Part shown: piece by piece, positions 1,681-62,942 of the stretch
Numbering within the stretch: position 1 is the first letter of the stretch
Layout: every line of letters begins with the position of its first letter
Assembly (NCBI GenBank): GCA_041663025.1
Contig: JBAZRE010000004.1
Location: 1 to 62,942 of the forward strand
DNA: 62,942 nt
Origin: Minisyncoccota bacterium
Lineage (GTDB): Bacteria; Patescibacteriota; Minisyncoccia; Phycocordibacterales; Phycocordibacteraceae
Direction: 5' to 3'
Notes under the pieces: generated by a model
Told to the model about the DNA's origin: nothing
Database searches by the model: none
The model's input: only the letters and a program-made list of their open reading frames with translations
Made by a program: the position numbers and the translations under genes

Positions 1681-1710
1681 GTGAATTATGGACATCGTAA
1701 GTCCATAGAT
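1681..1710. repeat. REP-like hairpin family A, copy 1 (30-nt unit GTGAATTATGGACATCGTAAGTCCATAGAT; stem TATGGAC/GTCCATA at 1687..1707)
   Basis: Identical 30-nt unit recurs at 2398..2427. Perfect 7-bp stem with a 7-nt loop. Lies 8 nt after the rnr stop codon. Confidence 0.85.
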
Positions 1711-1726
1711 GCGCTATGCTGTGGAT

Positions 1727-2401
1727 ATGGAACTTTGGCATGCGCTTAATCGCGGAGTAGACGGACGAGATTTATTCATGGACGATCGTGATCGTCTCCG
1801 CTTCATTCATGATCTTTACGAATTTGACGACACAGAACCTGCCAATCCAAACGTCGGCTATCACTTCAAATCTATGGACATCGTAAGTCCATATATCAAT
1901 AAACGGTCACGGACTCGTCTCGTTGAAATCCACGGTTGGTGTCTGATGAAAAATCATTATCATCTTCTTATGTCTGAGCTTATGGAGGGCGGTCTTTCAC
2001 TTTTTTTGCGAAAATTGAACGTTGGGTATGCAAAATCGTTCAACGAAAAATATGGACGGGTCGGGACTCTGTTCCAAAGCCGTACGAAAAAGATACTTAT
2101 CGAGAATGACGCACACTTTAATTACATTCTCCATTATATTCATCTCAATCCACTCGATTATCTTGCCGGAGCAGAGGCATGGAGAGAACGCAGTCATGCT
2201 GGAATTGCGAATGCCAAAGATGCTTTGAATTATCTTGAGCAATATCGCTGGAGTAGTTATCTGGATTATGCAGGACAAAAGAATTTCCCTTCAATACTCA
2301 CAACGTCGATTTTCAAAGACGCGCTTGGAAATTACTCGCAATCTCTTGAGGAATATCTAGTCGGAGTGACGGAAGATCAAGAATTATTGCGCTTTGAGTG
2401 A
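1727..2401 (+). CDS. RAYT-like HUH/Y1 transposase (COG1943 / IS200-like family), paralog A
   Basis: ORF 1709..2401; the likely start is the MELWHALNRG ATG at 1727, which aligns with paralog C. HUH motif NHYHLL, Tyr motif HYIHLNPL, N-terminal WHxxNRG...LF.DDxDRxRF. The TGA stop lies inside hairpin unit 2398..2427. Confidence 0.8.
   Translation: MELWHALNRGVDGRDLFMDDRDRLRFIHDLYEFDDTEPANPNVGYHFKSMDIVSPYINKRSRTRLVEIHGWCLMKNHYHLLMSELMEGGLSLFLRKLNVGYAKSFNEKYGRVGTLFQSRTKKILIENDAHFNYILHYIHLNPLDYLAGAEAWRERSHAGIANAKDALNYLEQYRWSSYLDYAGQKNFPSILTTSIFKDALGNYSQSLEEYLVGVTEDQELLRFE
1873..1893. repeat. Family A hairpin, internal copy inside the RAYT-A ORF (encodes MDIVSPY)
   Basis: TATGGACATCGTAAGTCCATA is identical to the flanking hairpins and is read in-frame. 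Confidence 0.85.
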
Positions 2402-44997: not shown

Positions 44998-45366
44998 CTA
45001 AGAGAAACGTCTACTGCTAGAAATCAAGGCACTCAGTATCTTATTCACTTGGAGCAACATATCCTCGATCTCTGAATAGTCGCCGGACGCTATGTAGTGT
45101 AGATCTCGTGCAATGAGACACTGACTCTCTAATTCGGTTAGCGAACCCCTCGCGATTGAGTAAAACTGCACCTTCTCCTTATAAGAATTTCGGCTGAAGC
45201 CCTCAGCAATATTTGACGGGATAGAGACAGCTGCTCGGCGCATTTGATTCACTATCCCGAACAATTCTTCTTTAGGAAAATTCTTTGTCAAAAGATATGT
45301 TTTGATTACCAGCTCATGAGATTTCTTCCATGCGTTTAAATCCTTAAATGTTCGTATTTTCTCCAT
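44998..45366 (-). CDS. Four-helix-bundle protein (23S rRNA IVS protein / Avd-like family, PF05635-type)
   Basis: FKDLNAWKKSHELV...RAAVSIPSNIAEGF.R....KVQFYSIARGSLTELESQ. Confidence 0.8.
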   Translation of the reverse strand: MEKIRTFKDLNAWKKSHELVIKTYLLTKNFPKEELFGIVNQMRRAAVSIPSNIAEGFSRNSYKEKVQFYSIARGSLTELESQCLIARDLHYIASGDYSEIEDMLLQVNKILSALISSSRRFS

Positions 45367-47868: not shown

Positions 47869-48600
47869 TTACTTATTCTTATCCACAGATGCCTTCGAGG
47901 TACTTGACTCCTCAATCGCCTTTGCTACAATTAACCCTGTTAACGTCGCCCCGGCCGAAAGGTCGGGGTTTGTCGTTACTCCATATTCTACCCACTCTCT
48001 AATTAATTCGAAAAAGATGTGGTTTTTAAGACGAAGCTCCCACGCCATATTTTTTTTGTAACCCATAAATATGATGTGTTTCCCACGCGCGGCCACATAT
48101 TTTTCAAGTGCGAGATAATCGCTGTCACCACTCACAATAATCGTAGCATCTACAGCCTCAATATTCTCCACAACGTCCACCGCAAGATCGACATCAATAT
48201 CTCCTTTTTTTATTTCTCTTTTCTCCTCATCACTCCAGATATATTTCATCGGTTTTTGACACACGGTAAATGCCATGGAAGCTTTTTGTATGTGTGTCAG
48301 TGTTTTTGCATAATTCGAGTCATCCTCACGTGGGACAACAATGTGGTAATTGATGAATGAGAGATTACAAGCGTGGGACAGCAAATTTTTCAATTTGCCG
48401 AAATCAATGCGCCACCCAATTCGCGCGGATGTATGGTATAGATTCCCTGCGTCAATAAACACGCCGATACACGGTTTTGTGTTTTTAGGCACAGAGACCT
48501 TGCTTTTGATGAGTTTGTTGATCATACTGTATGTAGAGATCGCCCGATGGGGGTGAGGGAGAGCACTTCCCAAGATTCTCGTTGCTGTGACGAAGTGCAT
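47869..48600 (-). CDS. NYN-domain (LabA-like) protein
   Basis: IGVFIDAGNLYH...GDIDVDLAVD...IVSGDSDY motifs. The true start may be the internal ATG at 48525. Confidence 0.7.
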   Translation of the reverse strand: MHFVTATRILGSALPHPHRAISTYSMINKLIKSKVSVPKNTKPCIGVFIDAGNLYHTSARIGWRIDFGKLKNLLSHACNLSFINYHIVVPREDDSNYAKTLTHIQKASMAFTVCQKPMKYIWSDEEKREIKKGDIDVDLAVDVVENIEAVDATIIVSGDSDYLALEKYVAARGKHIIFMGYKKNMAWELRLKNHIFFELIREWVEYGVTTNPDLSAGATLTGLIVAKAIEESSTSKASVDKNK

Positions 48601-48670
48601 ACATCAGCATAAAACGAGCATCCCCACCGGTTGACCTCACTATTCCATCGATCAAAATCTTTTTCCATAC

Positions 48671-50764
48671 TTACTTGAAAATCACGTTGCGTTTGAAGAT
48701 GAGGTTCTTGAGGAAGATAATGGGTGAGACATTGGGTAGGACCGGAGCCACCGGACACGCCCCACTCACCCATCCATTCCCAACAAAGTTGTAATCATTT
48801 GTTGAGTTTGTGACATACCACGTGGTATCAGGAGTCGCCTTGACTCTTGAAATATCAAGATAATCACCGCAAATTGTCCCTCCCCCCGCCTTAGCTAGAG
48901 TAGAAGTTGCCGCAGTTATTGTCCCAATAGTGATATGACTTCCACTCGTCCCTAGTAGCGTAGCTGTTGTTGTTGTGGAAATGGTATTAGCCGTGAACAG
49001 TATCGTCCTCCCTGCATCCACCTTAAAGTCATTAAAAGTATTTGAGCCTGAAAATAGGACAGCATAAGCTCCTGTCGTATTGTTCCAAAAGTTATTATAC
49101 GTTTTACTTCCGCCAGTAAAAGGTCTAGCGGCAGTGAGAGTGCTAATTAATTTGATAGTGGATTGCTCTGCATAAAAATTTAGATTTGTAACTGTAGCTA
49201 GATACCATAAATTGTCAGCACTTCCAGCAATAGTCCACGTTCCGCTTCCCATATATATACTGCGAGGATAGGTGCCACTTCCATCAAAATACCCAATAGT
49301 AACATTCTGGTCATTTGCATCAAAAATTCCAGAACCTATGGTAAGTTTTCTATTATTACCTAAGCTAAGAGCATCCATTAGCGTATATCCACCGTCTGAG
49401 GCATAAATTCTCAAACTCATTCCACTAGGAAAAGTTTTTCCATTACTTGTGAACTGGTGTTGCCCTCTTCCTTTCATATCAAGAGTGAAACCACTGCTAC
49501 CCGTTAAAGCTGTAGAGCTTGAAAAAGTGAAATTGCCAAATGCAGTTGTGGAAAGTGAACCCATAGCCCAAGTTTGACCTATTACCTCACTCCAATCAAT
49601 GTTTGCTCCAAGGCGTTGAACTGTACTTGTAATTGTCTTTCCTGACCCAGTGAAAGAAGCATTATCAAAAACTACATTGTCGTGACATAAAGGCACTCGT
49701 CCCAGCCCTCCTGCTCCACCAGAACCTAGATACCAGTGACCAGAATCACCCCAATTACCCGTATCAGCATACCAATAGAGCGTCGTGGAGGCGGTAAAGG
49801 CGGCATCTCCTAATGATTTAAAAGAGTTTCCACCGCAATTACCCGAACCACCAGTAGCTGCTGATAAATCCCAGCTCGCGGCTCCCGCTCCGGTGATGTC
49901 CATAAAATCAGCATTGGTAGCCGAAACGTTTGCGGCAGTAATAGTGGCTGGTGAGCCGCCACCAGCAGAGATATTTGAATAAACGAACGCTCTTGTAGTA
50001 GAAGAAAACCCATTTATGACGAAATTATTGTCAACCGTTAAACCAGAGATTGAAAACTGTCCCAGTATACCTTGATTGTTTCCAGCGGTTGAACCAGTAA
50101 CGGTTAAATCATAAAAAGCATTAGACCCTGTAAATGAAGTGCTGCCAGATATAGTAGTTCCCAATCCCGCCAACTCTACTTCTTGATTATTAGCATCAAA
50201 GCTTCCGACAGATCTTGCGAGAGTTAAAGCAGTTGTAGAAACAAGGTTCTTAAAAGTAAGTTTATCTGCTAGTTGGAGAGTCCCTGCTCCGTTAATAGTA
50301 AAGTTCCTAACGGTTAGCTCTACTCCATTAGACGTGAGTGTTTTAGTTGTTCCTGTTGGAGGACGAAAGGTAAGAGTTGAAGAGGCAGTCCATATGGCGC
50401 CTGAAGCTAAAGACATTGATCCATACACATCTACCGCTGTGGAGACGGTAACTCCCGTTGAAGCCAAAGTAACCACCCCAGAAGCTGGATTCCCTAATGT
50501 AAAGTCTGAAGAGGTAGCAACGGTATTTAGCGTTACTGTATAAGAGTTTGCACTGGAGTTGGTATCAAAAATAACATTTGTTGTGGTGGTAGGCATTGGT
50601 GCTGCAGCGGCTGGTGAGTTGCCAGAATTGTATGACCAGTGATTTGTCGCATCAGACCAGTTCCCTGAACCTCCATACCAATAGTTCGTAGCGTGCGCTG
50701 GTGAGGCGAAGAAGAAGATAAACACTATGAGAAGTAATTTATTGAATTTGTTCATTGATTCCAT
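48671..50764 (-). CDS. Secreted T/S/G-rich repeat protein, probably beta-helical (hypothetical surface protein)
   Basis: Signal-peptide-like N-terminus; 697 aa of low-complexity T/S/G/N repeats. Confidence 0.6.
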   Translation of the reverse strand: MESMNKFNKLLLIVFIFFFASPAHATNYWYGGSGNWSDATNHWSYNSGNSPAAAAPMPTTTTNVIFDTNSSANSYTVTLNTVATSSDFTLGNPASGVVTLASTGVTVSTAVDVYGSMSLASGAIWTASSTLTFRPPTGTTKTLTSNGVELTVRNFTINGAGTLQLADKLTFKNLVSTTALTLARSVGSFDANNQEVELAGLGTTISGSTSFTGSNAFYDLTVTGSTAGNNQGILGQFSISGLTVDNNFVINGFSSTTRAFVYSNISAGGGSPATITAANVSATNADFMDITGAGAASWDLSAATGGSGNCGGNSFKSLGDAAFTASTTLYWYADTGNWGDSGHWYLGSGGAGGLGRVPLCHDNVVFDNASFTGSGKTITSTVQRLGANIDWSEVIGQTWAMGSLSTTAFGNFTFSSSTALTGSSGFTLDMKGRGQHQFTSNGKTFPSGMSLRIYASDGGYTLMDALSLGNNRKLTIGSGIFDANDQNVTIGYFDGSGTYPRSIYMGSGTWTIAGSADNLWYLATVTNLNFYAEQSTIKLISTLTAARPFTGGSKTYNNFWNNTTGAYAVLFSGSNTFNDFKVDAGRTILFTANTISTTTTATLLGTSGSHITIGTITAATSTLAKAGGGTICGDYLDISRVKATPDTTWYVTNSTNDYNFVGNGWVSGACPVAPVLPNVSPIIFLKNLIFKRNVIFK

Positions 50765-51140
50765 CTAATTGCGCCTGCAATTCATCAGCTTGTCTTTGCA
50801 ACTCTTCTTTCGTCGGAACATAGGGCGGAGCTGCTTTTGCTGCCTTAATAGTCTTGAGCCAGTTATCAACTCTCGCTTTCTTATCAGCTGCAATGTCAGC
50901 AGGAGTCTTTGCCGCCCACTGCTCGGGTGTGTAGTAGATAGAGTCATTAAATTGTCCCTCTGGTGTATTTTCACTAATCTTGACTTGAATAGAAGCCTGA
51001 TTATCAGGGCCTTTGTTAAAATTCTCTTGTAGAAAGGCGGAAGTTTTTTGCTCCTCCACCTTCAGTTTTGAATTAAATTGAATCACCTCGCCTATGATGA
51101 TGGCAATTAATACTCCGACGATGATTGCGAATCCTTTCAT
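50739..51140 (-). CDS. Membrane-anchored hypothetical protein
   Basis: 133-aa ORF with an N-terminal TM helix. Confidence 0.5.
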   Translation of the reverse strand: MKGFAIIVGVLIAIIIGEVIQFNSKLKVEEQKTSAFLQENFNKGPDNQASIQVKISENTPEGQFNDSIYYTPEQWAAKTPADIAADKKARVDNWLKTIKAAKAAPPYVPTKEELQRQADELQAQLDGINEQIQ

Positions 51141-51213
51141 GGCGTTGTAGTTATAGTAGACATAATATCAGAAGCGGTTATCCACACTGTGAAATATGAG
51201 TCGAAATCTTTTT

Positions 51214-52284
51214 TCATAGTGTTGTTTTTTTACCCTTCCTCTTCTCGGCTATCTTCTTCACTTCTCGGTCAAAATCAGAAATGTAGTTTTTATCTTGTTT
51301 AATGCGATATTTTTCATATTCGCCCTCTGCCAAAGCAACTGCTACTTCGTGCGAGATATTTCCATTGTCCCTCAAGATGTCCCATTCATTGAACTGCAAG
51401 AAGGCATCTAGCTTCTCCACCCAATCCTTCATCTGCATCGCAATACCTTTTTGCGCTTGCATCTCGGCATAATCCAAATACATCGTTACGATTCTGTTGA
51501 GCCCATTTAATTCTTTTTCATCCAGATAATTTTTAGCAATCGCCACATCAGTTATCCTGATCGCTCCTTGGGGAGAATTTTTCCACGTGGTAAGTCCCAT
51601 GTTCGGTTTCGCACTTCCGACTCTTTTATAAACAATCTCTGCCGCAGTTTGACCGGATATAGCGAAGTGCATTTTATTCTGCACCGTGGCGAAGAATTGC
51701 TTTGTGATTTCTTCATTCGGATCATAATCAATGCTGCACTCTGCATAAATGTCAGTAACTTTTTGGTAAAATCTCCGTTCGCTGGAACGGATATTTCTAA
51801 CCCGTGCCAGTTGTTCTTCAAAATAATCCTTGCCAAAGATATTGTGCGGGTCTTTCAGTTTTTCGTCATTCATCGTAAAACCCTTGATGATATATTCTCT
51901 CAATCTCTCGGTCGCCCAGATGCGGAATTGTGTGGCTTTCTTGCTGTTCACTCGATAGCCGACAGAAAGAATCGCGTCGAGATTGTAGAATTCTATGTCC
52001 CTTTCAACCTGTCTTTGACCTTCTTTTTGAACTTGTGCAATTTTTGCACTAGTTGATTTCTTATCCAATTCTCTCTCTTCAAAGATATTTTGCAGATGCT
52101 TCGTTACGACGCTTCTCTCAATTCCAAAAAGTTCGGCGATTTTGGCCTGCGTTAGCCAGATATTTTCGTTATGGAGAAATATCTCAACCTTAACCTTTCC
52201 GTTCGGTGTGGTATAGAGCAAAAATTCTGTAAAACTATTTTGTTTTACTAATTCCCTTTTTGTCATTTTTTTGTTTTTAATCAT
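51214..52284 (-). CDS. RhuM-family protein (virulence-associated or DNA-binding; often on mobile elements)
   Basis: IWLTQ..IAELFG...V.KHL.NIF...EL...ST.AK...VQ.EG.R.V.R.I..YNLD.ILSVGYRVNS..ATQFR.WAT is typical of RhuM. Confidence 0.75.
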   Translation of the reverse strand: MIKNKKMTKRELVKQNSFTEFLLYTTPNGKVKVEIFLHNENIWLTQAKIAELFGIERSVVTKHLQNIFEERELDKKSTSAKIAQVQKEGQRQVERDIEFYNLDAILSVGYRVNSKKATQFRIWATERLREYIIKGFTMNDEKLKDPHNIFGKDYFEEQLARVRNIRSSERRFYQKVTDIYAECSIDYDPNEEITKQFFATVQNKMHFAISGQTAAEIVYKRVGSAKPNMGLTTWKNSPQGAIRITDVAIAKNYLDEKELNGLNRIVTMYLDYAEMQAQKGIAMQMKDWVEKLDAFLQFNEWDILRDNGNISHEVAVALAEGEYEKYRIKQDKNYISDFDREVKKIAEKRKGKKTTL

Positions 52285-52308: not shown

Positions 52309-55300
52309 TCATGTTGTAGCTGACGTGTCAGCAGGCACGACATCAGCTCCGACGCTTTCGGTCGGAGTCCCGACTTCTGACGTCGGGACAGGAGGCGGAG
52401 CCGCGGGAGCAGTGGGTTCGACAGTCTCACCGTGAATGACGGTGATGAGGCGCGAGGCGGTGCCGATATTCCCTGCCGCATCGGTCGCGGTGTAGGTGAG
52501 GGTGTAGAGTCCGGCGGTTGAAGTATCGACTGTGCCCGTCACGATCGGCATTATTGATCCATCTGTGTCATCAGCTGCAGTCGCGCCAGGATCGGTGAAG
52601 ACATCGCCAACGGTAATCTGCATCGCTGCATCTCCATTGAGCGTTACCACGGGCGATACCGTATCCGGATTTAAGGTTTGATCCAGCTGTAGCGGGATCG
52701 AACCTTGGTTATCGGAATCAGTCTGACTTCCACCCGCGCCCGAATCCGAAGCGCCAACAATGACCGAGCGCATCGCAGTCGAGCTATTCCCTGCCGCATC
52801 CTTCGCTTCATAGGTGATGAGATAGGTCGTCGGGCTAGCAGTGTCTATCGTCGCTGTAGAAACCTCTTGTTGCACACCATTTATATAGGTAGTGACCGAA
52901 GGATTATTGTCGATATCATCGACAACTGTCACACCTGGATCGGTGAACGTATCACCGACCGAGAGGCGCACCGGATTGTCACCGAGCAGAGTAATCACTG
53001 GCGGCGTCGTATCTCTTTCATTGGAAATTGAAAATTGTGAATTGGAAATTTCTGGCGGCGTGCTCGTCGCCACCTGACCCTCGGTCTGGACGAGGAAGTA
53101 GTCGAAGGAGACGTCGCTCTCTTGTGGCGCAGAGAGCACGAGCTTGAAAGATCCCTCCTTCTTGTCGCTGATGAACCACGAGCCCGTGGTTGAGGCGGTC
53201 AACGTCACGAATATCTTGGTTGTCGGCTTCACGTAGGCGTTCTCAACCTGCGCGACGGTGTTGCCGGCGAGAATGTTGACTGTACCAGCAGAGCTGCTGC
53301 CCTCAGAATTGGTCGCGGCGACGAATCGGTCGGCAATCAGCGTGCCAAACTGCGCGATGCCATTGCTTATGAACACTCCGAATGCGTTAAACGCGCTTGC
53401 GAGTGTTGAAGTGGAGAAGGTAACTGGTGAGTCGCTCGCTGTTGAGACTTCACCATTCTCGAGCGCGGAGACGCGCGCCTCAAGCGAGGTGAGGCGCATC
53501 TCGTGTGCATCAACCTTCGCCGCGAGATCATACACACCAGAGAGCGTGTAGGTCGCGAGCTTGTAGATATCAACGCCATTGCCGTCGGCCGTCAGAACAT
53601 CTGGAGATGTAGTGGAAGCAAAACCTCCAAGTAGACTTGAGATGTCACCTCTGACTGGCACAATAAATTCGTTTGCACTAACCGCACCGCTCACGTTGAA
53701 AGCATCCAGACTTAATTTATCAATCGATTGTTTGACCATCGCCTGCACTTGATCTTCAATCTTCATATTGGCGACGCGGTCTGCGACCATGCTCTCAACC
53801 TGTTCAACCACCAAGCTCTTGTTGCGACGAGAAATCAACACATTAATTTTGCCTTCGCCCTCTGCCAATGGCTCGAGCGCGACGCCCACAGTCGGATCGC
53901 CCGGATCAGCGCGCATCACGTATCCCGGCGTTGAAGATGCCGCGGTGAGCGAGTCGCCGGATATGATTGGCCCATTCTCCGCGCTCACGAACGCCGGAAT
54001 CTGACCGAGCATAGCGATGAGCTTGTAGTTCGGATTATTTTTATATTCCTCCTTCGCGTTCCCGATGAAGCCCGGCTTTGTGGAGACGATGCCCATCAGA
54101 TTATTATCCGCAGCACGATCGCAACGCTTCACCGCATTCTTCTGGCTCGTGTCAACACAGACTGCCTCGCCAGATTTCAAATCGATGTCGTCAGTGTAGA
54201 AATATTCGGCGTAGTCAGCGCTGCCGGACTGCAAGGCGACCGGGCTGTAGATACTGCCGTCAGCGCGCACATCGCCGTAGCCGGTAACACGGAAGATGGC
54301 GCCGGACGTCGTGGTGGAAATAACGAATGCATCAGAATTATCGGTTACGCTACTCACCACCGACAATCTGGCATATGGGCTGGTGGTGCCGATGCCCACA
54401 TTACCCAAAGAATCAATGACCATCGCCTGATCGCCGCCGCCGATAGTGGTGGTGGCGTTCGTTACCGATGGCGCGATGGTCAACCCGCCCAAGCTGTTAA
54501 CGGTAAAGTTCGCATAATTGGTGGTGTCATATGCCAACGTCAGCTGGGCGCCGACGCTTGAGGCGATAGAGAGTCGCGACATCGGCGAGCTCGTGCCGAC
54601 GCCGACATAGCCGCTGCTTAAAATCGTAATGTCTTCGCCCGATGTTCCATTCCCCATGCTAAATCTGCCGCTATGTTCCCATATTCTAAAGTCCGCATCT
54701 TCACCGCTTGCATCGTTAAAGTCTATAAGTCCGCCAGAACTGCCATAGAGCTGCATGCCCGCATAACTTGAGATTATCCCCAAGAAAGCTCCTTGAGCAG
54801 TCGGCATATTGCCAGTCCCAAGATCTCCAACTACATGGAGAGGTGAGAGTGGATCTGCCGTCCCGATGCCGACGTTCCCGCTTGTTTGTTGAACCACAAA
54901 TTTATTCGTTCCGATGGTCAAACCATTAGCAAAGGTTGATGTCGCCGTACCAGAACTCAAGCCGAGAGATCCGTCGGTAGAAGAGATTCCTGTGCCCGTG
55001 AGATACAGCGAGCCAGTACCGACCTTCAAAGTACCCATGACGTGCAGATTGTTCTCAATGGTTGAGGTCCCTGTCCCGCCCACATAGAGTCTGCCCGATG
55101 TGGAGAGAGATTCGGCAGGCGAGGTGGTGCCAATTCCGACGTTTCCATTCGCCAACACGGTCATAAAGGTTGAAGTGGCCGTACCGTTGGTGGTTGAGGC
55201 AATCGTGAAGAGCGGCGTGTTGGCGGCGGTGGTTCTGGAGTTTGAAATGGAGAGAAGAGAACCAGGGGTCGTAGAGCCCAAACCAATTCGGCCGGTGGCG

Positions 55301-58300
55301 AAGTCACCGTAGATGAGTGGAGTGGTGGAGGAGTTGGCAAGATAGAACTTGTTAGAGCCGGTCTCGAAGTAGCCAGCCTCATTGCCAATGAAGACGTTGC
55401 CAGAACCAAGAGCGCTAAAACCGGCCGACATGCCCAAGGCAACATTATAGCTACCGGTCTGGTTATTAAATAAACTACCCGCGCCAAAAGCGGTATTTAC
55501 TTGACCGGTAGTGTTATTCGGCAAAGCGAGAAATCCAAAAGCAGAATTATTTTCCCCGGTGGTATTTAAGTTAAGTGCATTACCGCCGAAAGCGCTGTTG
55601 TAGGAGCCGATTGTATTGGACAGAAGGGCATCACTTCCAAACGCATTGTTATAACTACCTGTTGTGTTTGATCCGAGAGCACCAGCTGTATCACCTGTAC
55701 CAAAAGCGTTGTTATAGCTACCCGTGCTATTAGAGCCTAGACTGGAGCCACCAAAAGCGCTGTTGTAGGAGCCGACGGTATTAACTCCCAAAGACATCAT
55801 ACCAAAGGCGCTATTGGCATTACCATTGGAATATTCCAAAGCCATTCCGCCGAAAGCACTATTTGAAGAGCCAGTTGTATTCGATTCAAATGCGCCTGCA
55901 CCAACCGCGGTATTGAACAGACCAGCAACTGTACCTCCATCCGGCATATTGCTCATGCCGGCGTTAGCACCGATAAATATATTGGTGTTCCAACCCAACG
56001 TGTCAGCGCCCGAGCTCCTCATTTCAAAACCAGTAGTGCCATCAGAATTTAAGAGAGTGAAGACAGGACTGGTTTGGGTAAGTTTCTTAACTGAAATAGC
56101 GTCAATGTATCCGTCGAAGTCTGTACTTGGGGTAAATATAAGATTGTCGGTGGTTTGGGCGGTAACAACCTCATACACATATCCTCCATCGACAATAGAA
56201 TAAGAATTCTGGCAATCAGTTCCGCCAAGAGAGCAGGTAACTGTACCCGTGCCGTTGAGTGTCTCTATGTAGAATGTAATCACATACGTCTCTCCGGCGA
56301 CTGCAGAAACATCCTGTTCTAGAGTCGCGATATTGCCCGGCGTATGCACCTCCCAATCATTGACTCCATCATATGACCAGCCGGCGCCAACGGTCCAGCC
56401 GGTATCGTTGGTGTTAAAACTGCCGTTAGTAACTTTTTCTGTGCCAAGTGTGGCTTCGGTGTTGGTGCCTTGGATAGATAGCTTAGCGGCTGGTGCAGAT
56501 GTGCCAATCCCTATATTCCCATTCGCCAAGACGGTCATGAAGGTTGAGGTTGCCGTTCCGTCGGTTGTAGAAGCAATGGTAAAGAGCGGCGTGTTGGCGG
56601 CAGTGGTTCGTGAGTTAGAAATGGAGAGAAGTGAGTACGGAGACGTTGTGCCAATTCCGACGAGACCGAGATTCACCATGTTGAGACCACCAGCATCGTT
56701 GCCCGCGCCGAGAGTTGAGGCGAGAGTATCGATGACATTTCCGCCAGCGCCTCCACCAACGCACGTTCCATTGATTGAGAAGCAACCACCATTCATGAGA
56801 TCAATACCCTTCGCATAGGAGGTGGTGGTGGCGTTGTCGAAGAAGTTCCAGCCGGTGCCGGTGCCGCCGATAGAGAGAAGTGAGCCTGGAGAGGTGGTGC
56901 CGATACCTACATTCCCGCCGTTCGTAACGATGAAGTTCGTTGCAGTTGATGACCCGACCACAAATTGCGGCGTGCCAGCGCCAAGGGCGTTCCCATTGAT
57001 TGAGAGCAAACCCCAAGGCGAGGTGGTGCCGAATCCGGCAAGGCCGTTATCTTGAAGCTTGAACAATGTCGTTGACGCGCTGTTCGCGAATTCAACCGTG
57101 GTGCTACTTGTCGAGCTCCGACCGAAGACGTTGAACATTGCGGTTGGCGGCGTTGAAGATCCGATGGTGACACCGTTTGAATAGGTGGAGCTCGCTCCGT
57201 CAGACAATCCATAGACCATTATCATGGGGTTGCCGCCGAGGTATGCGGTGTAGGATTGCGGGACACCCGCCACGACTGTATCGATAGGTACATCAGTCCA
57301 CTGAACCATACCTGCATTCGTGTCAAATGATTGCGTGCCGGAGATCAGGCTGCTGATTGATGTCTCGCCAGTCGAGAAGTCGCTGACGAATGCACCGCCG
57401 TTCACACTCAAGCCGCCTGCGAAAGTCGAGGTAGCGGTGGCGTTATCAGCATTGAAGTTCGCTCCGGCGATGAGGCCGCTGACTGAGAGGAGCGCATACG
57501 GCGAGGTGGTGCTGACACCGAGATAGCCGTTTGGATCAATCGTGAGCGCCGACATTGAGGAGGTGGCGAAAGTTAGCGGGCTGGAAGTAGCTATATAAAG
57601 GTATCCTCCGGCATTGCGGAATGTCCATTTGTTTGACGAGAGCGATGAATCGCCGAGCGCGAATTGCGGAGCCGTTGAGGTTGAAAGTTGGAATAGCCAT
57701 TGTGGAGTGGTTGTGCCGATGCCAAGATACGTGCCCGTGTCGTAGATCAGAGAATTATTGAAGGTACTGCCTCCCCATTTTGGCAGATAATTGGTAGTGA
57801 GAGATGAAACCGTGGTGGAGCCGAGAAGACCGAGAGATGAAGTGGCGGTGAGTGTGTATCCGCTGGAAGCGTTGCCGAGGAGGAGTTGACCGTAGGATGG
57901 CAGAGATGTTAATCCAGTGCCGCCATACATCACGCCGATGGAGGTGGTGGCTTGCCAAGTTCCGTTGGCAACGCTGATTGGGCCGTTCAAAGCAGATGAG
58001 TTAAGACCCGTGCCTCCATAGACATTGCTGATGGCAGTGCCATTCCAGATTCCCTCTTTCACCGTGCCAGTTGTGTCAATGCGGAATGCGTTGCCGGCAG
58101 TGCCGACTGAGAAGAGTGAGAATGGTGATGTGGTGCCGACACCGAGATTACCATTGATAGCCAAGCCGCCCTGATACAGATTGTTTGGCGGAGTGATATT
58201 CGAATCTGCTTTGCCAGAGGTCATTACCGCTGAAGCGGTATTAGCGACGGCGACAAATGTGCCATTGCCGTAGGCGACTCCCTGCCATGTATCGGCAGGA

Positions 58301-61300
58301 GAGGTTCGGAGTTTCCAAGTTGCGCCATCGGGAGAAGTCATGACGAAGTTATCAGAACTGACCGCGACATATAAACCGTTACCGTAGGTAACTGAATTCC
58401 AGACATTGCTCGTAGCACCTGCGTGACCCGTCCACGCTGTGCCATTGGGCGAGGTCATGACAACATTTGCCCCGCCGTCAGTCGAGACTGCGACGAAGAG
58501 GCCGTTGCCGTAGGTGACAGACTTCCACCAACCAGACGCGCCGAGACCAGCTTGTGGTGTCCATGTCACTCCGTCAGGTGAAGTCATAACTCTGTTATCA
58601 CCAGAGAGAGCGACGGCGACGAAGAGGCCGTTGCCGTAGGTGATGCCCTGCCAGCTGTTGTCCTCGGCACTTGCTTGGAGTGCCCATGTGATGCCGTCGG
58701 GAGAAGTCATCACATGATTGGCTCCGCCGTCACTCGAGACCGCGACGAATGTTCCGTTGCCATATGTGACAGACTTCCAATTGTTCGCGGCGGCTGCAGT
58801 TCTGCTGGTCCAGGTGGCGCCGTTTGGCGAAGTCATGACGAAGCCGTCAGTAGAGACTGCGACGAAGAGACCGTTACCGTAGGTGACTGAGCCCCATATC
58901 TTATCTGCGGCGCTTGTTCTCGTGGTCCAATTGATGCCGTCGGGCGAAGTCATGACTCCTGTGCTAACGCCAGACGTAGATGAGGCAACAGCGACGAAGA
59001 GGCCGTTGCCGTATGTGATGCCCAACCACTTGTTGCTCACCGAAGCAGTTCGCGCCGTCCACGATGTTCCCTTTGAAATGATGTTGCCAACGACCTCTAA
59101 CTTCTCTCCCGGGGTCGCCGTGCCGATGCCGACCGTGCCATCATTTTTCACGATGAATTGCGTTGTCGTTGCAAATGATGCAACGCTCGAGAGCTGGAAG
59201 AGCGGCGCACTGCCATCATTCACACCAGCGACATCGAGAATCGCCAGAGGAGAAGTTGTGCCGATGCCGAGATTCGTGCCGACGTTGTTGTAGAGATTTG
59301 AGCCAGAAGAAGTCCAATAGTTCGTACCTTCAATCCCGGTGAGTGTCGAGCCATCAAATGACAATCCAGTACCGACGACGAGTGACTTGATGAACGATGA
59401 GCCGTTACCGACGAGGATGCCGCCGAGTGGTGTGCTTGATGCAGTACCACCCGAGCTGATGCCAAGCGCAGAAGCTAATGTGACAGCACCGTTGGAGCTA
59501 ATGGCGAGTGCTGGGATGGTGCTGGTGGCATAGGCATCAGAGCTCGTACCTATATATAGGTTCCCGCCCATCGAGGAGAAGAGCCAGTGCTTGAGGTTGG
59601 CTCCTGCACCCGAGTCGGACAAAGCAATTTGAGCCTTACCTCTTGAGGCGACTTGGAGATTCCATGCTGGGGTGGTGGTGCCTATACCGACATTACCGCC
59701 TCTTTGGAGATACATGACATTACCACCGTTAGCTGACAACCCAAGATTACTGCCCGTGCCATCATCATATCTATATAGACCAGTATTGTTTCCACTATGA
59801 AATGATATCCCAGGTGCTGACGCAGTTCCGTCTCCAAAATATGCGACTCCACCATTTACATCCAACTTCGCCCCGGGATTCGCCGTCCCAATCCCCACAT
59901 ACCCATTCGCGAGGACGGTCATGAAGGTTGAGGTCGCAGTGCCATCGGTTGTTGAAGCGATAGTGAAGAGCGGCGTGTTGGCGGCGGTTGTTCTGGAGTT
60001 GGAGATGGAGAGGAGTGAGTATGGTGAAGTAGTGCCGATGCCGACGTTGCTCGCGCTTGAGATAAAGAGCGTTGAAGTGCCGATGGCGGTGTTCGCGCTG
60101 CTGAAATATGCAATCTGGCCAAGGGAGCCAGAGAGAGTGGCGGATCCGCCTCCGCCAAAAGTTGAAGTTGCCACATAGTCATAACCAGTGCCGGCGGCGT
60201 TGCCTACCAGCACTTGCCCGTACGCCGGCAGAGCGGAAACGCCGGTACCACCTGAGCTGATGCCAAGCGCAGAAGCCAGAGTGAGTGCACCATTGCTGTT
60301 GATGGAAAGTGCCGGGATGGTTGAAGTGGCATATGAATCAGAAGATGTGCTGATGTAGAAGTTGCCGCCCATGGATGAGAAGAGCCAGTGCTTGAGGTTT
60401 GCTCCGGCGGACATATCCGAGAGGGCGAACTGCGTTTTGGTACTTGAGGCGATTTGGAGATTCCATTGCGGCGTCGTGGTGCCGATGCCTATGACGCCGG
60501 AGGGATTGGAAACAAGCGCGGTTGAAGTCGCCGGAAGCGTACCGAAGATGATACCGCCAATGTTTAACTGGTTGTTACCAGTGGCGTTTGGGAAGAAAGT
60601 GTTGTAGCCAATTCCAATATTATTGCCTCCACTGGTGAGGTTGCTTACAGTGTCTACATTTGCTCCCAAGAGAATGTTGCCAAATCCTGTACTTACCTCA
60701 CGACCTGCTTGGTAACCTATTAACGTATTGTAGTCAGAGCTGTTTCCGGACTTTAGACCTGCGCCGAGACCGATATATACACCTCCTTGAGTCGTAATGG
60801 GACCGCTCCACGCTCCTCCAGCAGTATTCCCGATTGCCACCCCGTTAGTCATATTGTTGTAGTTGGCAGCTGTAGCACCGATCGCTACACTGTTTGAACC
60901 TGTAGTATTTGTTAACAATGCAGAAGAACCAATCGCCGTATTTGAAGTGCCAGAAGTATTCGCTGTAAGGGCATTCGCTCCAATTGCTGTATTACCGATA
61001 CCAGTATTCGCTGTAAGCGCCTTATACCCAATAGCGGTTAAAGACAAATTCGGACCTGGGCTTGTAGTAGCGGTATTCCCGGCAGAAAAACCAAAAATGG
61101 TGGAGGAATTTGTTGTCGACGCATAGCCAAGCAAAAGGCCGTCTTGGCGGTAACCAGAGTATTGATTAACGTTGATGAACCCTGCTACGTCGAGTTTATA
61201 ATCGGGCGCCGACGTCCCAATCCCGAGATTTCCAGTTGATGAGATGAAGATTGTTGAGGTTGCTTGCGCGACACCAGCATCATTGCCGACCAAGAAGTTC

Positions 61301-62942
61301 CCTTTTGCGAGTTGGTTGGTTTGAGGCGTATAGCCGAAGAGTGAAGATGATGCGATTGCATAGGTTGTGCCATTGTTGGCGGCAACGAGACCGGTGAAGG
61401 AGGCGAGGACTGGAGCGGTGGTGAAGGTCTGTGTTTGTGACCAGGTGTTTGGTGTTGTGGTGCCGAAGGCGAGGGAGACCGCGTGAGATGCGCCAGCTGA
61501 TACTATGACCGGATATGTGCCACTAATGGTGACAATACCAGTGTTAGTGACTGTGAAATTCGGATATGTGCCGGTCACGTTGATGCCGGCGCCATTTGCA
61601 AGAGCGACAGTTTGATCAGGCGCGGTGTTGGTGATGGTGAGACCAGAACCAACCACAGCACCGGTGCCACTGATAGAAATGCCGGTGCCATTTGAGACGG
61701 TTGACGTGCCAACATTGGCAAACGTATTCGCACCAGAGAAGTATGGGATGTTGCCGATGACTGCATCGGTTGATGTGGAGAGGCCGTTGAATCCAACAGT
61801 TGCACCTGAGAGTGTGATGGGCCAAGCGGTTGAAATGGTGGCTTGTTTTGCATTCCACGTTGCTGCTGATGCGATGCGATCATCTGCGAGTGTTCCGATC
61901 CAGTATGGTGTGAAGAGATGTTCGGTGCCATTTGAGACGATGGTCATGCCGAGGTTGGTGTCGGCAGTTGATGTTGCGAGTGTTTGAGTGGAGCCGGTGA
62001 GGCCGGTGTGGAAGTTGTCTCCGAGGGTTTGGATGGCGGCGGAGAGTGGTGTATAGCCGAAGAGTGAAGATGATGCGATTGCATAGGTTGTGCCATTGTT
62101 GGCAGCAACGAGACCGGTGAAGGAGGCGAGGACTGGTGCGGTGGTGAAGGTCTGTGTTTGTGACCAGGTGTTTGGTGTGGTGGTGCCGAATGCGAGGGAG
62201 AAGGTTGTCGCAGGACCGATGAGAGAACCGGCACCGGAGATCTGAAGAGGATAAGTGCTGATGGGAGCAGAGGTTGCAACATTGGCGAAGGTATTAGCAC
62301 CAGAGAAGTATGGGATGTTGCCGATGACGGCATCTGTTGATGTTGAGAGACCGCCGAATGATAAAGATGATCCGGAAATGGAAAGGGGGAATGATGTGGT
62401 GAGGTTTTGGATCGAAGAAGAAGCGACCCATGCTGGCACCCCATCACTCATAGCGAGAATGTATCCATTCGTTCCTGCATTGATGGAACCGAGTGTGTTA
62501 GTGCCGCTGAAATATGGGAGTGCGTTTGCTGCACCTGTATACAGAGAAGAAGTGGCGATTGAGAGTGTAGGAGATGAACCGAGTGTGGACCAGATGCCGC
62601 CCGTTGAAAGGCCAAGACCAAAGGTTGGCGTGGAGGTCGCGACGCCATAGACACCTGAGGTGCCATTTGATACGAGAAGATTGCTTGAAGAAGGTTGGCT
62701 AGTGGTGGCAAGACCGGTCCATGTGAGAGAACCGCCGGTGCCGATATAGGTGAAGGAACCGGAGAACGGTGCTGATAATGAGAGTGAAGATGTGGCAACA
62801 TTGGCGAAGGTATTAGCACCAGAGAAGTATGGGATGTTGCCGATGACTGCATCGGTTGATGTGGAGAGGCCGTTGAATCCAACAGTTGCACCTGAGAGTG
62901 TGATGGGCCAAGCGGTTGAAATGGTGGCTTGTTTTGCATTCC
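52309..62942 (-). CDS. Giant modular surface protein (>3,540 aa), 5'-partial
   Basis: ORF 52309..62451; by hand translation the same frame has no stop from 62452 to the window end. Modules: GN(V/I)GIGT tail-fibre-like repeats; YadA-head-like NSAFG repeats (about 55400..55930 and 60600..61060); WxxVTYGNGxFVAV repeats (about 58200..59060); CBM-like module (about 56080..56450); ADYAEYF segment (about 54200); two Ig-like C-terminal domains (about 52440..53010). Confidence 0.85.
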   Translation of the reverse strand, partial: NAKQATISTAWPITLSGATVGFNGLSTSTDAVIGNIPYFSGANTFANVATSSLSLSAPFSGSFTYIGTGGSLTWTGLATTSQPSSSNLLVSNGTSGVYGVATSTPTFGLGLSTGGIWSTLGSSPTLSIATSSLYTGAANALPYFSGTNTLGSINAGTNGYILAMSDGVPAWVASSSIQNLTTSFPLSISGSSLSFGGLSTSTDAVIGNIPYFSGANTFANVATSAPISTYPLQISGAGSLIGPATTFSLAFGTTTPNTWSQTQTFTTAPVLASFTGLVAANNGTTYAIASSSLFGYTPLSAAIQTLGDNFHTGLTGSTQTLATSTADTNLGMTIVSNGTEHLFTPYWIGTLADDRIASAATWNAKQATISTAWPITLSGATVGFNGLSTSTDAVIGNIPYFSGANTFANVGTSTVSNGTGISISGTGAVVGSGLTITNTAPDQTVALANGAGINVTGTYPNFTVTNTGIVTISGTYPVIVSAGASHAVSLAFGTTTPNTWSQTQTFTTAPVLASFTGLVAANNGTTYAIASSSLFGYTPQTNQLAKGNFLVGNDAGVAQATSTIFISSTGNLGIGTSAPDYKLDVAGFINVNQYSGYRQDGLLLGYASTTNSSTIFGFSAGNTATTSPGPNLSLTAIGYKALTANTGIGNTAIGANALTANTSGTSNTAIGSSALLTNTTGSNSVAIGATAANYNNMTNGVAIGNTAGGAWSGPITTQGGVYIGLGAGLKSGNSSDYNTLIGYQAGREVSTGFGNILLGANVDTVSNLTSGGNNIGIGYNTFFPNATGNNQLNIGGIIFGTLPATSTALVSNPSGVIGIGTTTPQWNLQIASSTKTQFALSDMSAGANLKHWLFSSMGGNFYISTSSDSYATSTIPALSINSNGALTLASALGISSGGTGVSALPAYGQVLVGNAAGTGYDYVATSTFGGGGSATLSGSLGQIAYFSSANTAIGTSTLFISSASNVGIGTTSPYSLLSISNSRTTAANTPLFTIASTTDGTATSTFMTVLANGYVGIGTANPGAKLDVNGGVAYFGDGTASAPGISFHSGNNTGLYRYDDGTGSNLGLSANGGNVMYLQRGGNVGIGTTTPAWNLQVASRGKAQIALSDSGAGANLKHWLFSSMGGNLYIGTSSDAYATSTIPALAISSNGAVTLASALGISSGGTASSTPLGGILVGNGSSFIKSLVVGTGLSFDGSTLTGIEGTNYWTSSGSNLYNNVGTNLGIGTTSPLAILDVAGVNDGSAPLFQLSSVASFATTTQFIVKNDGTVGIGTATPGEKLEVVGNIISKGTSWTARTASVSNKWLGITYGNGLFVAVASSTSGVSTGVMTSPDGINWTTRTSAADKIWGSVTYGNGLFVAVSTDGFVMTSPNGATWTSRTAAAANNWKSVTYGNGTFVAVSSDGGANHVMTSPDGITWALQASAEDNSWQGITYGNGLFVAVALSGDNRVMTSPDGVTWTPQAGLGASGWWKSVTYGNGLFVAVSTDGGANVVMTSPNGTAWTGHAGATSNVWNSVTYGNGLYVAVSSDNFVMTSPDGATWKLRTSPADTWQGVAYGNGTFVAVANTASAVMTSGKADSNITPPNNLYQGGLAINGNLGVGTTSPFSLFSVGTAGNAFRIDTTGTVKEGIWNGTAISNVYGGTGLNSSALNGPISVANGTWQATTSIGVMYGGTGLTSLPSYGQLLLGNASSGYTLTATSSLGLLGSTTVSSLTTNYLPKWGGSTFNNSLIYDTGTYLGIGTTTPQWLFQLSTSTAPQFALGDSSLSSNKWTFRNAGGYLYIATSSPLTFATSSMSALTIDPNGYLGVSTTSPYALLSVSGLIAGANFNADNATATSTFAGGLSVNGGAFVSDFSTGETSISSLISGTQSFDTNAGMVQWTDVPIDTVVAGVPQSYTAYLGGNPMIMVYGLSDGASSTYSNGVTIGSSTPPTAMFNVFGRSSTSSTTVEFANSASTTLFKLQDNGLAGFGTTSPWGLLSINGNALGAGTPQFVVGSSTATNFIVTNGGNVGIGTTSPGSLLSIGGTGTGWNFFDNATTTSYAKGIDLMNGGCFSINGTCVGGGAGGNVIDTLASTLGAGNDAGGLNMVNLGLVGIGTTSPYSLLSISNSRTTAANTPLFTIASTTDGTATSTFMTVLANGNIGIGTSAPAAKLSIQGTNTEATLGTEKVTNGSFNTNDTGWTVGAGWSYDGVNDWEVHTPGNIATLEQDVSAVAGETYVITFYIETLNGTGTVTCSLGGTDCQNSYSIVDGGYVYEVVTAQTTDNLIFTPSTDFDGYIDAISVKKLTQTSPVFTLLNSDGTTGFEMRSSGADTLGWNTNIFIGANAGMSNMPDGGTVAGLFNTAVGAGAFESNTTGSSNSAFGGMALEYSNGNANSAFGMMSLGVNTVGSYNSAFGGSSLGSNSTGSYNNAFGTGDTAGALGSNTTGSYNNAFGSDALLSNTIGSYNSAFGGNALNLNTTGENNSAFGFLALPNNTTGQVNTAFGAGSLFNNQTGSYNVALGMSAGFSALGSGNVFIGNEAGYFETGSNKFYLANSSTTPLIYGDFATGRIGLGSTTPGSLLSISNSRTTAANTPLFTIASTTNGTATSTFMTVLANGNVGIGTTSPAESLSTSGRLYVGGTGTSTIENNLHVMGTLKVGTGSLYLTGTGISSTDGSLGLSSGTATSTFANGLTIGTNKFVVQQTSGNVGIGTADPLSPLHVVGDLGTGNMPTAQGAFLGIISSYAGMQLYGSSGGLIDFNDASGEDADFRIWEHSGRFSMGNGTSGEDITILSSGYVGVGTSSPMSRLSIASSVGAQLTLAYDTTNYANFTVNSLGGLTIAPSVTNATTTIGGGDQAMVIDSLGNVGIGTTSPYARLSVVSSVTDNSDAFVISTTTSGAIFRVTGYGDVRADGSIYSPVALQSGSADYAEYFYTDDIDLKSGEAVCVDTSQKNAVKRCDRAADNNLMGIVSTKPGFIGNAKEEYKNNPNYKLIAMLGQIPAFVSAENGPIISGDSLTAASSTPGYVMRADPGDPTVGVALEPLAEGEGKINVLISRRNKSLVVEQVESMVADRVANMKIEDQVQAMVKQSIDKLSLDAFNVSGAVSANEFIVPVRGDISSLLGGFASTTSPDVLTADGNGVDIYKLATYTLSGVYDLAAKVDAHEMRLTSLEARVSALENGEVSTASDSPVTFSTSTLASAFNAFGVFISNGIAQFGTLIADRFVAATNSEGSSSAGTVNILAGNTVAQVENAYVKPTTKIFVTLTASTTGSWFISDKKEGSFKLVLSAPQESDVSFDYFLVQTEGQVATSTPPEISNSQFSISNERDTTPPVITLLGDNPVRLSVGDTFTDPGVTVVDDIDNNPSVTTYINGVQQEVSTATIDTASPTTYLITYEAKDAAGNSSTAMRSVIVGASDSGAGGSQTDSDNQGSIPLQLDQTLNPDTVSPVVTLNGDAAMQITVGDVFTDPGATAADDTDGSIMPIVTGTVDTSTAGLYTLTYTATDAAGNIGTASRLITVIHGETVEPTAPAAPPPVPTSEVGTPTESVGADVVPADTSATT
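55144..55275. repeat. Intragenic near-identical repeat (LLSISNSRTTAANTPLFTIASTT.GTATSTFMTVLANGN), copy 3 (approximate bounds)
   Basis: Same peptide and very similar DNA at about 56516..56650 and 59903..60035. Confidence 0.7.
56516..56650. repeat. Intragenic near-identical repeat, copy 2 (approximate bounds)
   Basis: See 55144..55275. Confidence 0.7.
59903..60035. repeat. Intragenic near-identical repeat, copy 1 (approximate bounds)
   Basis: See 55144..55275. Confidence 0.7.
61328..61478. repeat. Approx. 150-nt intragenic repeat (AFGTTTPNTWSQTQTFTTAPVLASFTGLVAANNGTTYAIASSSLFGYTP), paired with 62050..62200
   Basis: Only a handful of mismatches by eye. Confidence 0.75.
62797..62942. repeat. 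Approx. 145-nt intragenic repeat, paired with 61711..61856 (a related shorter copy at about 62270..62350)
   Basis: The last approx. 125 nt are identical by eye. Explains the duplicated off-frame ORFs 61575..61931 and 62448..62939. Confidence 0.75.

Follow-up and report, generated by a model that had tools for sequence, protein, structure and literature searches.

A giant phage-tail-fibre-like protein with a predicted phi29 gp12-type autochaperone domain, encoded at a contig end in a Patescibacteria bacterium

What is a bacterium belonging to the candidate phyla radiation (CPR, Patescibacteria) doing with a single protein of more than 3,500 residues, and how does such a protein fold and reach its target? 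This question is raised by the stretch analysed here, one entire contig of 62,942 bp (the window), at the end of which lies the partial coding sequence of a giant protein (52309..62940, minus strand). The reading frame runs from 62940 down to 52312 with 3,543 sense codons and zero internal stops, is closed by a stop codon at 52309-52311 and is open at the window edge. At a GC content of about 50%, it is impossible that 3,543 stop-free codons arose by chance. Residues are numbered from the codon at 62940 (residue 1), and all features of the protein given below lie on the minus strand. With a probability of roughly 0.55, we read it as an N-terminally anchored, probably trimeric, chromosomally encoded adhesive fibre of the phage-tail-fibre type from a Patescibacteria (CPR) bacterium, its cleavage and adhesion being proposed from sequence and by analogy with characterised fibres.

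The preliminary description of this locus, made from the nucleotide sequence, had likened a segment with the motif ADYAEYF to auto-processing intramolecular chaperone domains. This assignment holds and can be made more precise, as residues 2908-3042 (53815..54219) are predicted by Pfam, BLASTP, an AlphaFold2 (AF2) model and Foldseek to form a Peptidase_G2 domain of the type found in gp12 of phage phi29, and not a Peptidase_S74 domain (PF13884; SDxxxK motif), for which no match at E<=1 was found in the whole protein or in its segments. When the segment was scanned separately, PF11962 (Peptidase_G2, intramolecular chaperone (IMC) autoproteolytic cleavage domain) matched it with an E value of 3.9e-5 and 23.6 bits over profile positions 33-99 of 228, and the scores of four close relatives ranged from 24.7 to 29.5 bits, three of the four lying above 25. 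BLASTP against gp12, whose sequence was obtained by translation from NC_011048, pairs A2908|D2909-YAEYF (GSA|DYAEYF) with WS691|D692-FAEYF. Since mature gp12* ends at residue 691 (PMC6542822), the position aligned with A2908|D2909 is the cleavage site of gp12, and the predicted scissile bond falls between the codons at 54219-54217 and 54216-54214. An alignment of 12 G2-domain sequences shows no variation at the A, D, Y, A, E and F of the motif, and an Ala precedes the DYAE motif in 198 of 202 family sequences (regular expression with D, Y and E fixed and A or S at the third position). This strict conservation of the exact cleavage-site motif suggests that catalysis has been retained; in gp12, D692 and E695 reportedly form the catalytic pair (family G2 of MEROPS). 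The AF2 model, built on a 36-sequence alignment, reaches a predicted local distance difference test score (pLDDT) above 90 over residues 2908-3036. Its best PDB matches in Foldseek are 3GQH (3gqh_A, the C-terminal fragment of gp12, E 3.7e-5) and 3SUC (premature gp12, E 5.5e-5), both with a probability of 1.0 and followed by structurally related capsid decoration proteins, while the best matches in BFVD are entries named 'Preneck appendage protein' (E 7e-13). By sequence, cleavage-site alignment and predicted fold, the ADYAEYF segment is thus assigned to the phi29 gp12-type autochaperones.

The gp12 pre-neck appendage (a tailspike; PF11962, 3GQH, 3SUC) and the giant protein therefore have in common a homologous domain fold (Foldseek E 3.7e-5) and the cleavage-site motif, S691|DFAEYF in the former and A2908|DYAEYF in the latter, and in both the chaperone domain comes after beta-helical fibre or spike modules. 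They differ in that gp12 is a phage protein of 854 residues, whereas the giant protein is cellular, chromosomally encoded and at least 3,543 residues long; the P1 residue is Ser in gp12 and Ala here; the domain is non-terminal in the giant protein, and, unlike gp12, this protein would fold extracellularly. If the assignment is correct, gp12-type (G2) autochaperones would extend from small phage spikes to giant extracellular proteins of cells.

By analogy with gp12 and with S74 fibres, the C-terminal G2 domain and the coiled coil behind it would nucleate trimerisation and set the three chains in register, and the chain might then be cut at A2908|D2909. The cut would free, or leave non-covalently bound, a tail of 635 residues comprising the G2 domain, the coiled coil, a beta-sandwich and two Ig-like domains. 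The coiled coil of the preliminary description agrees with two long helices (approximately 3045-3075 and 3125-3161) that the AF2 model places within residues 3043-3165 (53446..53814). The beta-sandwich (residues 3210-3290; 53071..53313) is modelled with confidence over residues 3214-3285 or so and has no assigned family, a very weak similarity to GspA/SrpA Siglec-like domains being its sole family hint. The two Ig-like domains, also noted before, are Bact_surface_Ig-like (DUF5011) domains at residues 3313-3396 (52753..53004) and 3429-3502 (52435..52656), and PF16403 matches the two stretches above its cut-off (115 bits, E 1.4e-33). The protein ends with a Pro/Thr-rich stretch (residues 3503-3543; 52312..52434; sequence and Pfam), in which no LPXTG motif, transmembrane helix or YadA anchor (PF03895) was found.

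Several points weigh against this reading. The PF11962 score of the segment is slightly below the gathering cut-off of 25 bits, and P1 is Ala instead of the Ser of gp12. Release of the gp12 chaperone is said to be ATP-dependent, and ATP would be unavailable extracellularly. About 500 residues (coiled coil, beta-sandwich and the two Ig-like domains) follow the G2 domain, which is therefore not at the extreme C-terminus; conserved and variable domains beyond the chaperone argue against its simple discard after folding, as a tail of this length, with a conserved coiled coil and variable adhesin-type domains, is unexpected on a disposable chaperone. Moreover, export and anchoring are deduced from relatives, the N-terminus of this protein lying beyond the contig end, and its N-terminal repeat region may have suffered from mis-assembly or collapse. 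Accordingly, the G2 domain may have lost its cleaving activity, or else the cleaved tail may stay bound or have a role of its own.

The first of these options leads to the alternative that survives best, in which the G2-like domain does not cleave; together with the coiled coil it would be a lasting node of trimerisation, and the distal adhesive tip would be formed by the beta-sandwich and the two DUF5011 Ig-like domains. We regard it as possible, if doubtful. The length of the tail behind the cleavage site and the Ala at P1 agree with it, and so does the distribution of the tail domains, since across 77 loci the coiled coil is kept in 66, and the adhesin-type domains are variable, the beta-sandwich occurring in eight and the Ig-like domains in just seven. 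The same tail is also found behind an S74 domain in other CPR proteins (62% identity, see below). However, all 12 aligned sequences keep the D, Y, A and E of the motif and the preceding Ala is nearly invariant, which suggests that catalysis is retained, and in the cellular fibre Bd3182 of Bdellovibrio bacteriovorus the S74 domain does cleave itself (PMC10769870).

The G2 domain of the protein was compared with 1.84 billion cluster representatives by phmmer, which gave 11,813 representatives at E<=1e-3, 2,707 at E<=1e-10 and 316 at E<=1e-30. The longest of the best 150 hits measure 6,890, 5,709, 5,122, 4,978 and 4,769 residues. Among GTDB species genomes, 223 loci carry a relative, nearly all of them in Patescibacteria among the 80 listed. 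Complete open reading frames (ORFs) bearing a G2 domain are 489-3,181 residues long and at least 11 exceed 3,700 residues before being cut by the 10-kb flank; the distance from the G2 domain to the C-terminus is usually 350-650 residues and sometimes about 1,390-1,580. A homology search returned relatives of less than 1,000 residues, and the giant ones surfaced through the genome loci and the representative search. The named relatives belong almost without exception to Patescibacteria/CPR (Kaiserbacteria, Parcubacteria/Paceibacterota, Falkowbacteria, Moranbacteria, Saccharibacteria, WWE3 and others), and, judged from these names, the source organism is a Patescibacteria/CPR bacterium. Over the same 77 loci, the G2 domain is present in all 77, the NSAFG repeats described below in six, the propeller and the N-terminal repeat in two each and the module resembling a carbohydrate-binding module (CBM) in one. 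As judged from these sequences, the fibre modules are shuffled, while the G2 domain is constant and the coiled coil after it nearly so. A tblastn search of 50,697 phage genomes with the G2 segment gave zero matches, and IMG/VR contained 19 distant relatives at 24-40% identity, compared with 50-75% in the 80 kept of the 223 GTDB loci. Since phage genomes give none and IMG/VR gives few and distant ones, the CPR clade of G2 proteins is cellular and distinct.

The tail is common to this family and to S74 fibres. Residues from about 3108 to 3503 are 62% identical (E 3e-153) to a Kaiserbacteria protein of 519 residues that carries the same tail after a Peptidase_S74 domain, and the similarity begins where its S74 Pfam match ends. 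The matches include many with S74 plus tail and others with G2 plus tail. Because both precede it, one type of catalytic part, G2 or S74, can replace the other ahead of a single conserved tail, which consists of coiled coil, beta-sandwich and Ig-like domains. As regards Peptidase_S74 fibres (phage K1F endosialidase, T5 pb1, MyRF, Bacteroidota proteins), thousands of S74 proteins also have the N(S/T)AFG block that closes with GNVFIG...PLIYGDF in the giant protein; the catalytic part is S74 in those fibres and G2-type here (no S74, no SDxxxK).

Complete members of the family have one of two kinds of start. The first is a short hydrophobic signal-anchor; in the second, a hydrophobic helix at residue 100-230 comes after an HTH_17-like motif, whose match (E 1.4e-5) stays below the cut-off. 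Judged by these relatives, the missing N-terminus would carry a membrane anchor, that is, a signal-anchor or an HTH_17-like cytoplasmic domain plus transmembrane helix, and the chain would be exported and project from the cell. In one complete relative with the HTH motif and transmembrane helix (P0394, 2,935 residues), the N-terminal repeat of the window protein sits at residues 968-1022, so that several hundred or more residues may be missing from the latter. The HTH_17-like start is seen in many complete giant members (P0389, P0373, P0409 and P0394; loci L006, L018, L020, L038, L046 and L064), about 100-230 residues ahead of the transmembrane helix, and it is duplicated in P0373; a cytoplasmic domain of DNA-binding type is an odd feature for a surface fibre.

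The closest characterised functional analogues of such a protein are the mosaic adhesive trimer (MAT) fibres of B. bacteriovorus, phage-like trimeric fibres on the surface of the predator, with or without an S74 domain and with glycan binding; self-cleavage of S74 in a cellular fibre is known from Bd3182 of the same organism (PMC10769870). Both are phage-tail-fibre-like proteins of cellular organisms living on other bacteria, and both are mosaics in which a repetitive stalk bears variable binding domains. The capping-loop motif of MAT fibres, V-G-G/N-pi-x-x-P-x-x-x-L on the edges of beta-helices (PMC10769870), is similar to the VGIGTxxPxxxL of the giant protein, which is one residue longer and resembles the motif of S74 fibres as well. 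Some MAT fibres carry an autoproteolytic chaperone domain, as the giant protein is predicted to do; theirs is S74 or none, not G2. They also differ in size (about 1,000 residues versus more than 3,500), in having a conserved beta-rich N-terminal domain of about 130 residues after the signal peptide, where the N-terminus of the giant protein lies beyond the contig end, and in placing the tip directly before S74, whereas the giant protein has large domains after its chaperone; finally, they stem from a diderm predator and not from a CPR bacterium. Based on this analogy, the most likely role of the giant fibre is binding to a host or a surface. It would attach the cell to a host cell or another surface, with a specificity that depends on the shuffled modules, as it does in phage receptor-binding proteins and in MAT fibres, the propeller, the CBM-like module and the tail domains being candidate binders of host-cell ligands.

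That a reduced genome spends more than 10 kb on one adhesin-like protein had been considered notable; giant surface proteins of CPR bacteria are, however, not new per se. Vampirococcus lugosii encodes ten giant membrane proteins of 1,392-4,163 residues, and such proteins have been credited with the thick fibrous coats of CPR cells and proposed to act in host recognition (PMC8080830). Like the present protein, they are very large, are predicted to lie on the surface and come from a reduced CPR genome; they contain WD40, PKD, integrin, fibronectin and DUF11 domains, and no phage-fibre/autochaperone architecture has been reported for them (PMC8080830). These coats, together with the large size of the family and its spread over many CPR classes, are what speaks for a structural role, with the fibre being part of the envelope or matrix (an S-layer-like coat, or cell-cell stacking) instead of recognising a host. 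We consider this unlikely, as the extreme shuffling of modules and the inserts of ligand-binding type are more typical of specificity determinants than of a coat of uniform structure.

For the proposed adhesive fibre, the significance lies in host range. Of the factors with which ultrasmall CPR epibionts might recognise and hold their hosts, type IV pili are the sole one tested in the literature searched, and the G2 family of CPR would be a concrete candidate, with its hallmarks of phage receptor-binding proteins, namely binding modules shuffled on a fibre stalk and a folding domain predicted to process itself. The family appears to be undescribed; the literature search found no paper naming both 'endosialidase' and 'Patescibacteria'. 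One may speculate further, at the price of a low probability, that CPR bacteria as a whole hold a large, fast-shuffled set of phage-derived, self-assembling receptor-binding fibres (up to about 6,900 residues, with gp12/S74-type autochaperone and a shared tail cassette) that decide on the host cell, and that some lineages encode tip and chaperone separately and join them by split-intein trans-splicing. If this were true, tips could be swapped without rewriting a gene of 10-20 kb.

The observation behind the last point concerns locus L088 (JGI 3300011997 Ga0120162_1000094), which shares synteny with the window, its fibre genes being followed by those for GAPDH, RpiB, a pilin-like protein, RPE, transketolase, PfkB and aldolase. 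A fibre gene at L088:1-1831 ends in an S74 domain and the N-terminal half of an intein (PDVNAQ|CVVGDTRL...TTANHPYL...stop). After roughly 3 kb and four intervening genes, of which one is Bro-N, a gene of 628 codons (L088:4796-6682) opens with an intein C-terminal half (...VYDIEVEGTHNFVGNDIFAHN|T) and continues with a fibre module, an S74 domain and then this same tail cassette. Such an arrangement suggests an intein, naturally split or invaded, by which fibre stalk and tip cassettes would be joined. A start of the intein C-half type is also seen in several complete small relatives, and WWE3 loci with a G2 domain open with a similar motif (WKKVSEIKVGDKIAV); besides L088, the proteins P0154, P0134 and P0158 and the loci L053 and L061 belong to this observation. 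No intein was found within the window.

Ahead of the G2 domain, the body of the protein is a mosaic of beta-helix/beta-prism-type modules with candidate ligand-binding inserts, so that the earlier view of several modules combined in one chain stands, the modules being of the extracellular-fibre type. Thr, Gly, Ser, Ala and Asn are abundant, and charged residues are scarce. Residues 1-560 (61261..62940) consist of Patescibacteria-specific repeats (...GLSTSTDAVIGNIPYFSGANTFANVATS...) with a duplication offset of 362 residues (1,086 nt). No Pfam family matches this region, and its relatives are secreted CPR proteins of 350-980 residues, six of eight inspected having a signal or anchor peptide at the N-terminus. 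A first N(T/S)A(I/F)G block, beta-helix-like, follows at residues 634-800 (60541..61041) and matches PHROG families annotated as 'virion structural protein' and 'tail spike'. Residues 805-1290 (59071..60528) hold fibre modules interspersed with GNVGIGTxxPxxxL motifs, together with LKHWLFSS units that form an 85-residue repeat of 81% identity; further GIGT modules, including copies of the LLSISNSRTTAANTPLFTIASTT unit, are assigned by motif, repeat and PHROG matches to residues 1591-2155 (56476..58170), and the final ones, by motif and PHROG matches, to residues 2552-2907 (54220..55287), ahead of the autochaperone domain. Altogether, G[IVL]G[TS] motifs occur 17 times, usually as GNVGIGTxxPxxxL or VGIGTxxPxxxL, and the GIGT modules match PHROG tail-fibre families with E values down to 1.6e-13, in agreement with their original comparison to phage tail fibres.

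A different outcome was obtained for the second N(S/T)AFG block (residues 2318-2551; 55288..55989; period of about 17 residues; phrog_6002, E 4.5e-28), which had been likened to YadA heads. That likeness is not supported: at E<=1, no YadA-head or Hep_Hag Pfam match was found on the giant protein, and a profile of the segment and 29 relatives retrieved from the PDB S74 regions alone (6f45, 7dc3) and no autotransporter head. Its relatives run to thousands, most of them S74 'tail fiber domain-containing proteins' from Bacteroidota and other groups, a type from which its closing sequence, GNVFIGNEAGY..GSNKFYLANS..PLIYGDF, is also known, and a YadA_anchor domain is present in two of the 120 best. 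The YadA family of trimeric autotransporter adhesins likewise places Asn/Gly/Ala-rich repetitive blocks of beta-structure in a fibrous adhesin; unlike these, the giant protein has no YadA anchor, no YadA-head/Hep_Hag match and a repeat period of about 17 residues, and its anchor is expected at the N-terminus. No outer membrane is expected in CPR envelopes.

Two inserts interrupt the stalk. The repeats W..VTYGNG.FVAV...MTSPDG..W at residues 1294-1579 (58204..59061) are propeller-like, as had been proposed, but their number is seven and not about eight, with seven [VI][TA]YGNG motifs spaced 38-44 residues apart and repeats of about 42 residues. EPTP (54.1 bits, E 1.6e-14, cut-off 21) and DUF6242 (40 bits, E 5.1e-10, cut-off 29) match over the seven repeats, and the region is therefore taken as a seven-bladed propeller-like domain; a reading of MTSPDG..W as an Asp-box (BNR) was rejected because the spacing deviates from the SxDxGxTW consensus. 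The second insert, a possible carbohydrate-binding or jelly-roll module at residues 2166-2287 (56080..56445), is weaker than first described: AlcCBM31 does match (E 3.9e-4, 21 bits), but below its cut-off of 25 bits, and the AF2 model of the stretch has a pLDDT of 30-50 and no Foldseek match at E<=0.001. The whole model of residues 2140-2570, which spans this module and the second NSAFG block, is of low confidence and gave no significant fold match, and searches of the PDB by phmmer, made with the segments of G2 domain, NSAFG block and propeller, returned nothing significant. A scan with NCBIfam gave nothing useful.

The beta-helix-like N(S/T)AFG blocks and their matches to tail-spike families raise the alternative that the fibre bears an enzyme and is a surface depolymerase acting on polymers of the host envelope, like phi29 gp12 and many tailspikes, and not a pure adhesin; tailspikes and capsule lyases do appear low in the Foldseek list. 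However, searches of Pfam, NCBIfam and PHROGs revealed neither a catalytic family nor a catalytic motif, and the model of the NSAFG block is the low-confidence one without a fold match, which makes this option quite unlikely.

Turning to the other end of the gene, the ORF list starts it at the ATG at 62451 because there is no ATG, GTG or TTG in frame between this position and the window edge. The preliminary description had taken the frame to continue beyond this ATG without a stop, to carry the same repeat architecture there and to be truncated at its 5' end, and all three statements were confirmed. Translated on the minus strand, 62200-62940 forms one continuous frame (...NAKQATISTAWPITLSGATVGFNGL...YILAMSDGVPAW...), which from 62940 reads ...NAKQATISTAWPITLSGATVGFNGLSTSTDAVIGNIPYFSGANTFANV..., while stops are present in both other frames; the ATG at 62451 encodes an internal Met within ...GYILAMSDG..., and the listed ORF at 62448..62939 belongs to another frame and is a shadow ORF. 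The edge stretch duplicates an internal module, as residues 2-48 recur at 364-410.

The contig could not be extended. The locus was recovered in two other assemblies; both, however, end inside the gene, and the true 5' end was not recovered. ENA assembly ERZ27249449 contains a contig of 61,610 bp (k141_994128) that covers the locus, is 100% identical to the window over the compared overlap (35437-57857) and ends at window position 59394, the giant gene being called there as 2,361 residues running off the contig end. A contig of 64,344 bp encodes the same proteins as the window. The representative search had returned a 100% identical version of 3,272 residues (P0368), identical over the G2 domain and over residues 272-560, whose first residue is residue 272 of the window protein, and which maps up to a contig end at 62128; an offset of +2,216, as for the ENA contig, puts the end of the 64,344-bp contig exactly there. 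Counting the window, the giant gene thus ends short in three assemblies, at window positions 59394, 62128 and 62942. An exact 60-mer of 62700-62760 was absent from both the genome and the metagenome contig collections searched, a codon-degenerate pattern for GTNGYILAMSDGVPAWVA had no match in metagenome contigs, and look-ups through neighbouring proteins yielded solely contigs likewise ending within the giant gene.

Two of the three ends, 62128 and 62942, fall in or at DNA repeats of 154-164 nt. The stretch at the contig end (62779..62942) is 95% identical to 61693-61856, 1,086 nt away (repeat D3), and a second pair, 62048-62201 and 61325-61478 (97% identical, 723 nt apart; D7), contains the end at 62128. 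Since three assemblies stop within the gene and two of these ends are at repeats, we attribute the truncation to an assembly break in repeats, the 95-97% identical copies being its likely cause; the copy number of the repeats in the 5' region is uncertain. The same facts, breakage in three assemblies and near-identical repeats at the breaks, would also be expected if the single giant ORF were in part an artefact, by a chimeric join or by collapsed 5' repeats. We hold this to be improbable, as the assemblies agree at 100% over 35437-57857 and P0368 does so over the G2 domain and residues 272-560, the frame is intact for 10.6 kb, and complete genes of equal or larger size exist among the relatives.

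The remainder of the window is occupied by core genes for RNase II/R, SMC, RNase III, NusB, DnaE, a HisRS-type synthetase, GyrB, PheRS, ribosomal proteins S2, L31, L32 and L25, EF-Ts and a release factor, and by metabolic genes for GAPDH, RpiB, RPE, transketolase, a PfkB-family sugar kinase and aldolase. No phage structural, packaging or lysis genes were seen in the 62.9 kb. The giant protein is chromosomally encoded, its flanks being core chromosomal and not prophage. That it is a tail fibre or tailspike of a phage or prophage, a virion component found on this contig by accident, is hardly conceivable despite the PHROG tail-fibre, tail-spike and virion-protein matches, the gp12-type fold and a RhuM-family gene directly downstream, given the core chromosomal surroundings without other phage genes, the empty search of phage genomes, the few and distant relatives in IMG/VR and the N-terminal membrane anchors of complete relatives.

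Some of the genes near the giant gene deserve mention. The RhuM-family gene is the first of a group at 47869-52284 (minus strand), between the giant gene and a LamG gene, which further contains an NYN-domain gene and, without an assigned family, genes for proteins of 133 and 697 residues. Between its fibre genes and the GAPDH gene, locus L088 carries other genes (Bro-N, Y1 transposase), and because of this difference in content the group in the window resembles a variable island beside the fibre locus. The LamG gene (45437-47857, minus strand) lies about 4.5 kb downstream of the giant gene and encodes a lectin-like protein of 806 residues with a DUF2341 and two LamG/concanavalin-like (Laminin_G_3) domains. 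Next to it, a gene of 122 codons (44998-45366, minus strand) matches 23S_rRNA_IVP and has a weak match to bAvd, which is an accessory protein in diversity-generating retroelements; such an element was considered on account of this gene and set aside, as no reverse transcriptase was found among the ORFs scanned. A small fibre paralog of 688 residues is encoded at 27985-30051 (minus strand); it has a transmembrane anchor at its N-terminus, GNVGIGT modules and, at its C-terminus, a Peptidase_S74 domain plus coiled coil, and is located within a cluster of unannotated genes (30094-31677, 26417-27610 and 25071-26402), in which there is one weak Fib_succ_major match. Finally, an ORF of 230 codons at 1709-2401 (plus strand) shows a marginal match to an IS200-like Y1 transposase (E 6.5e-5).

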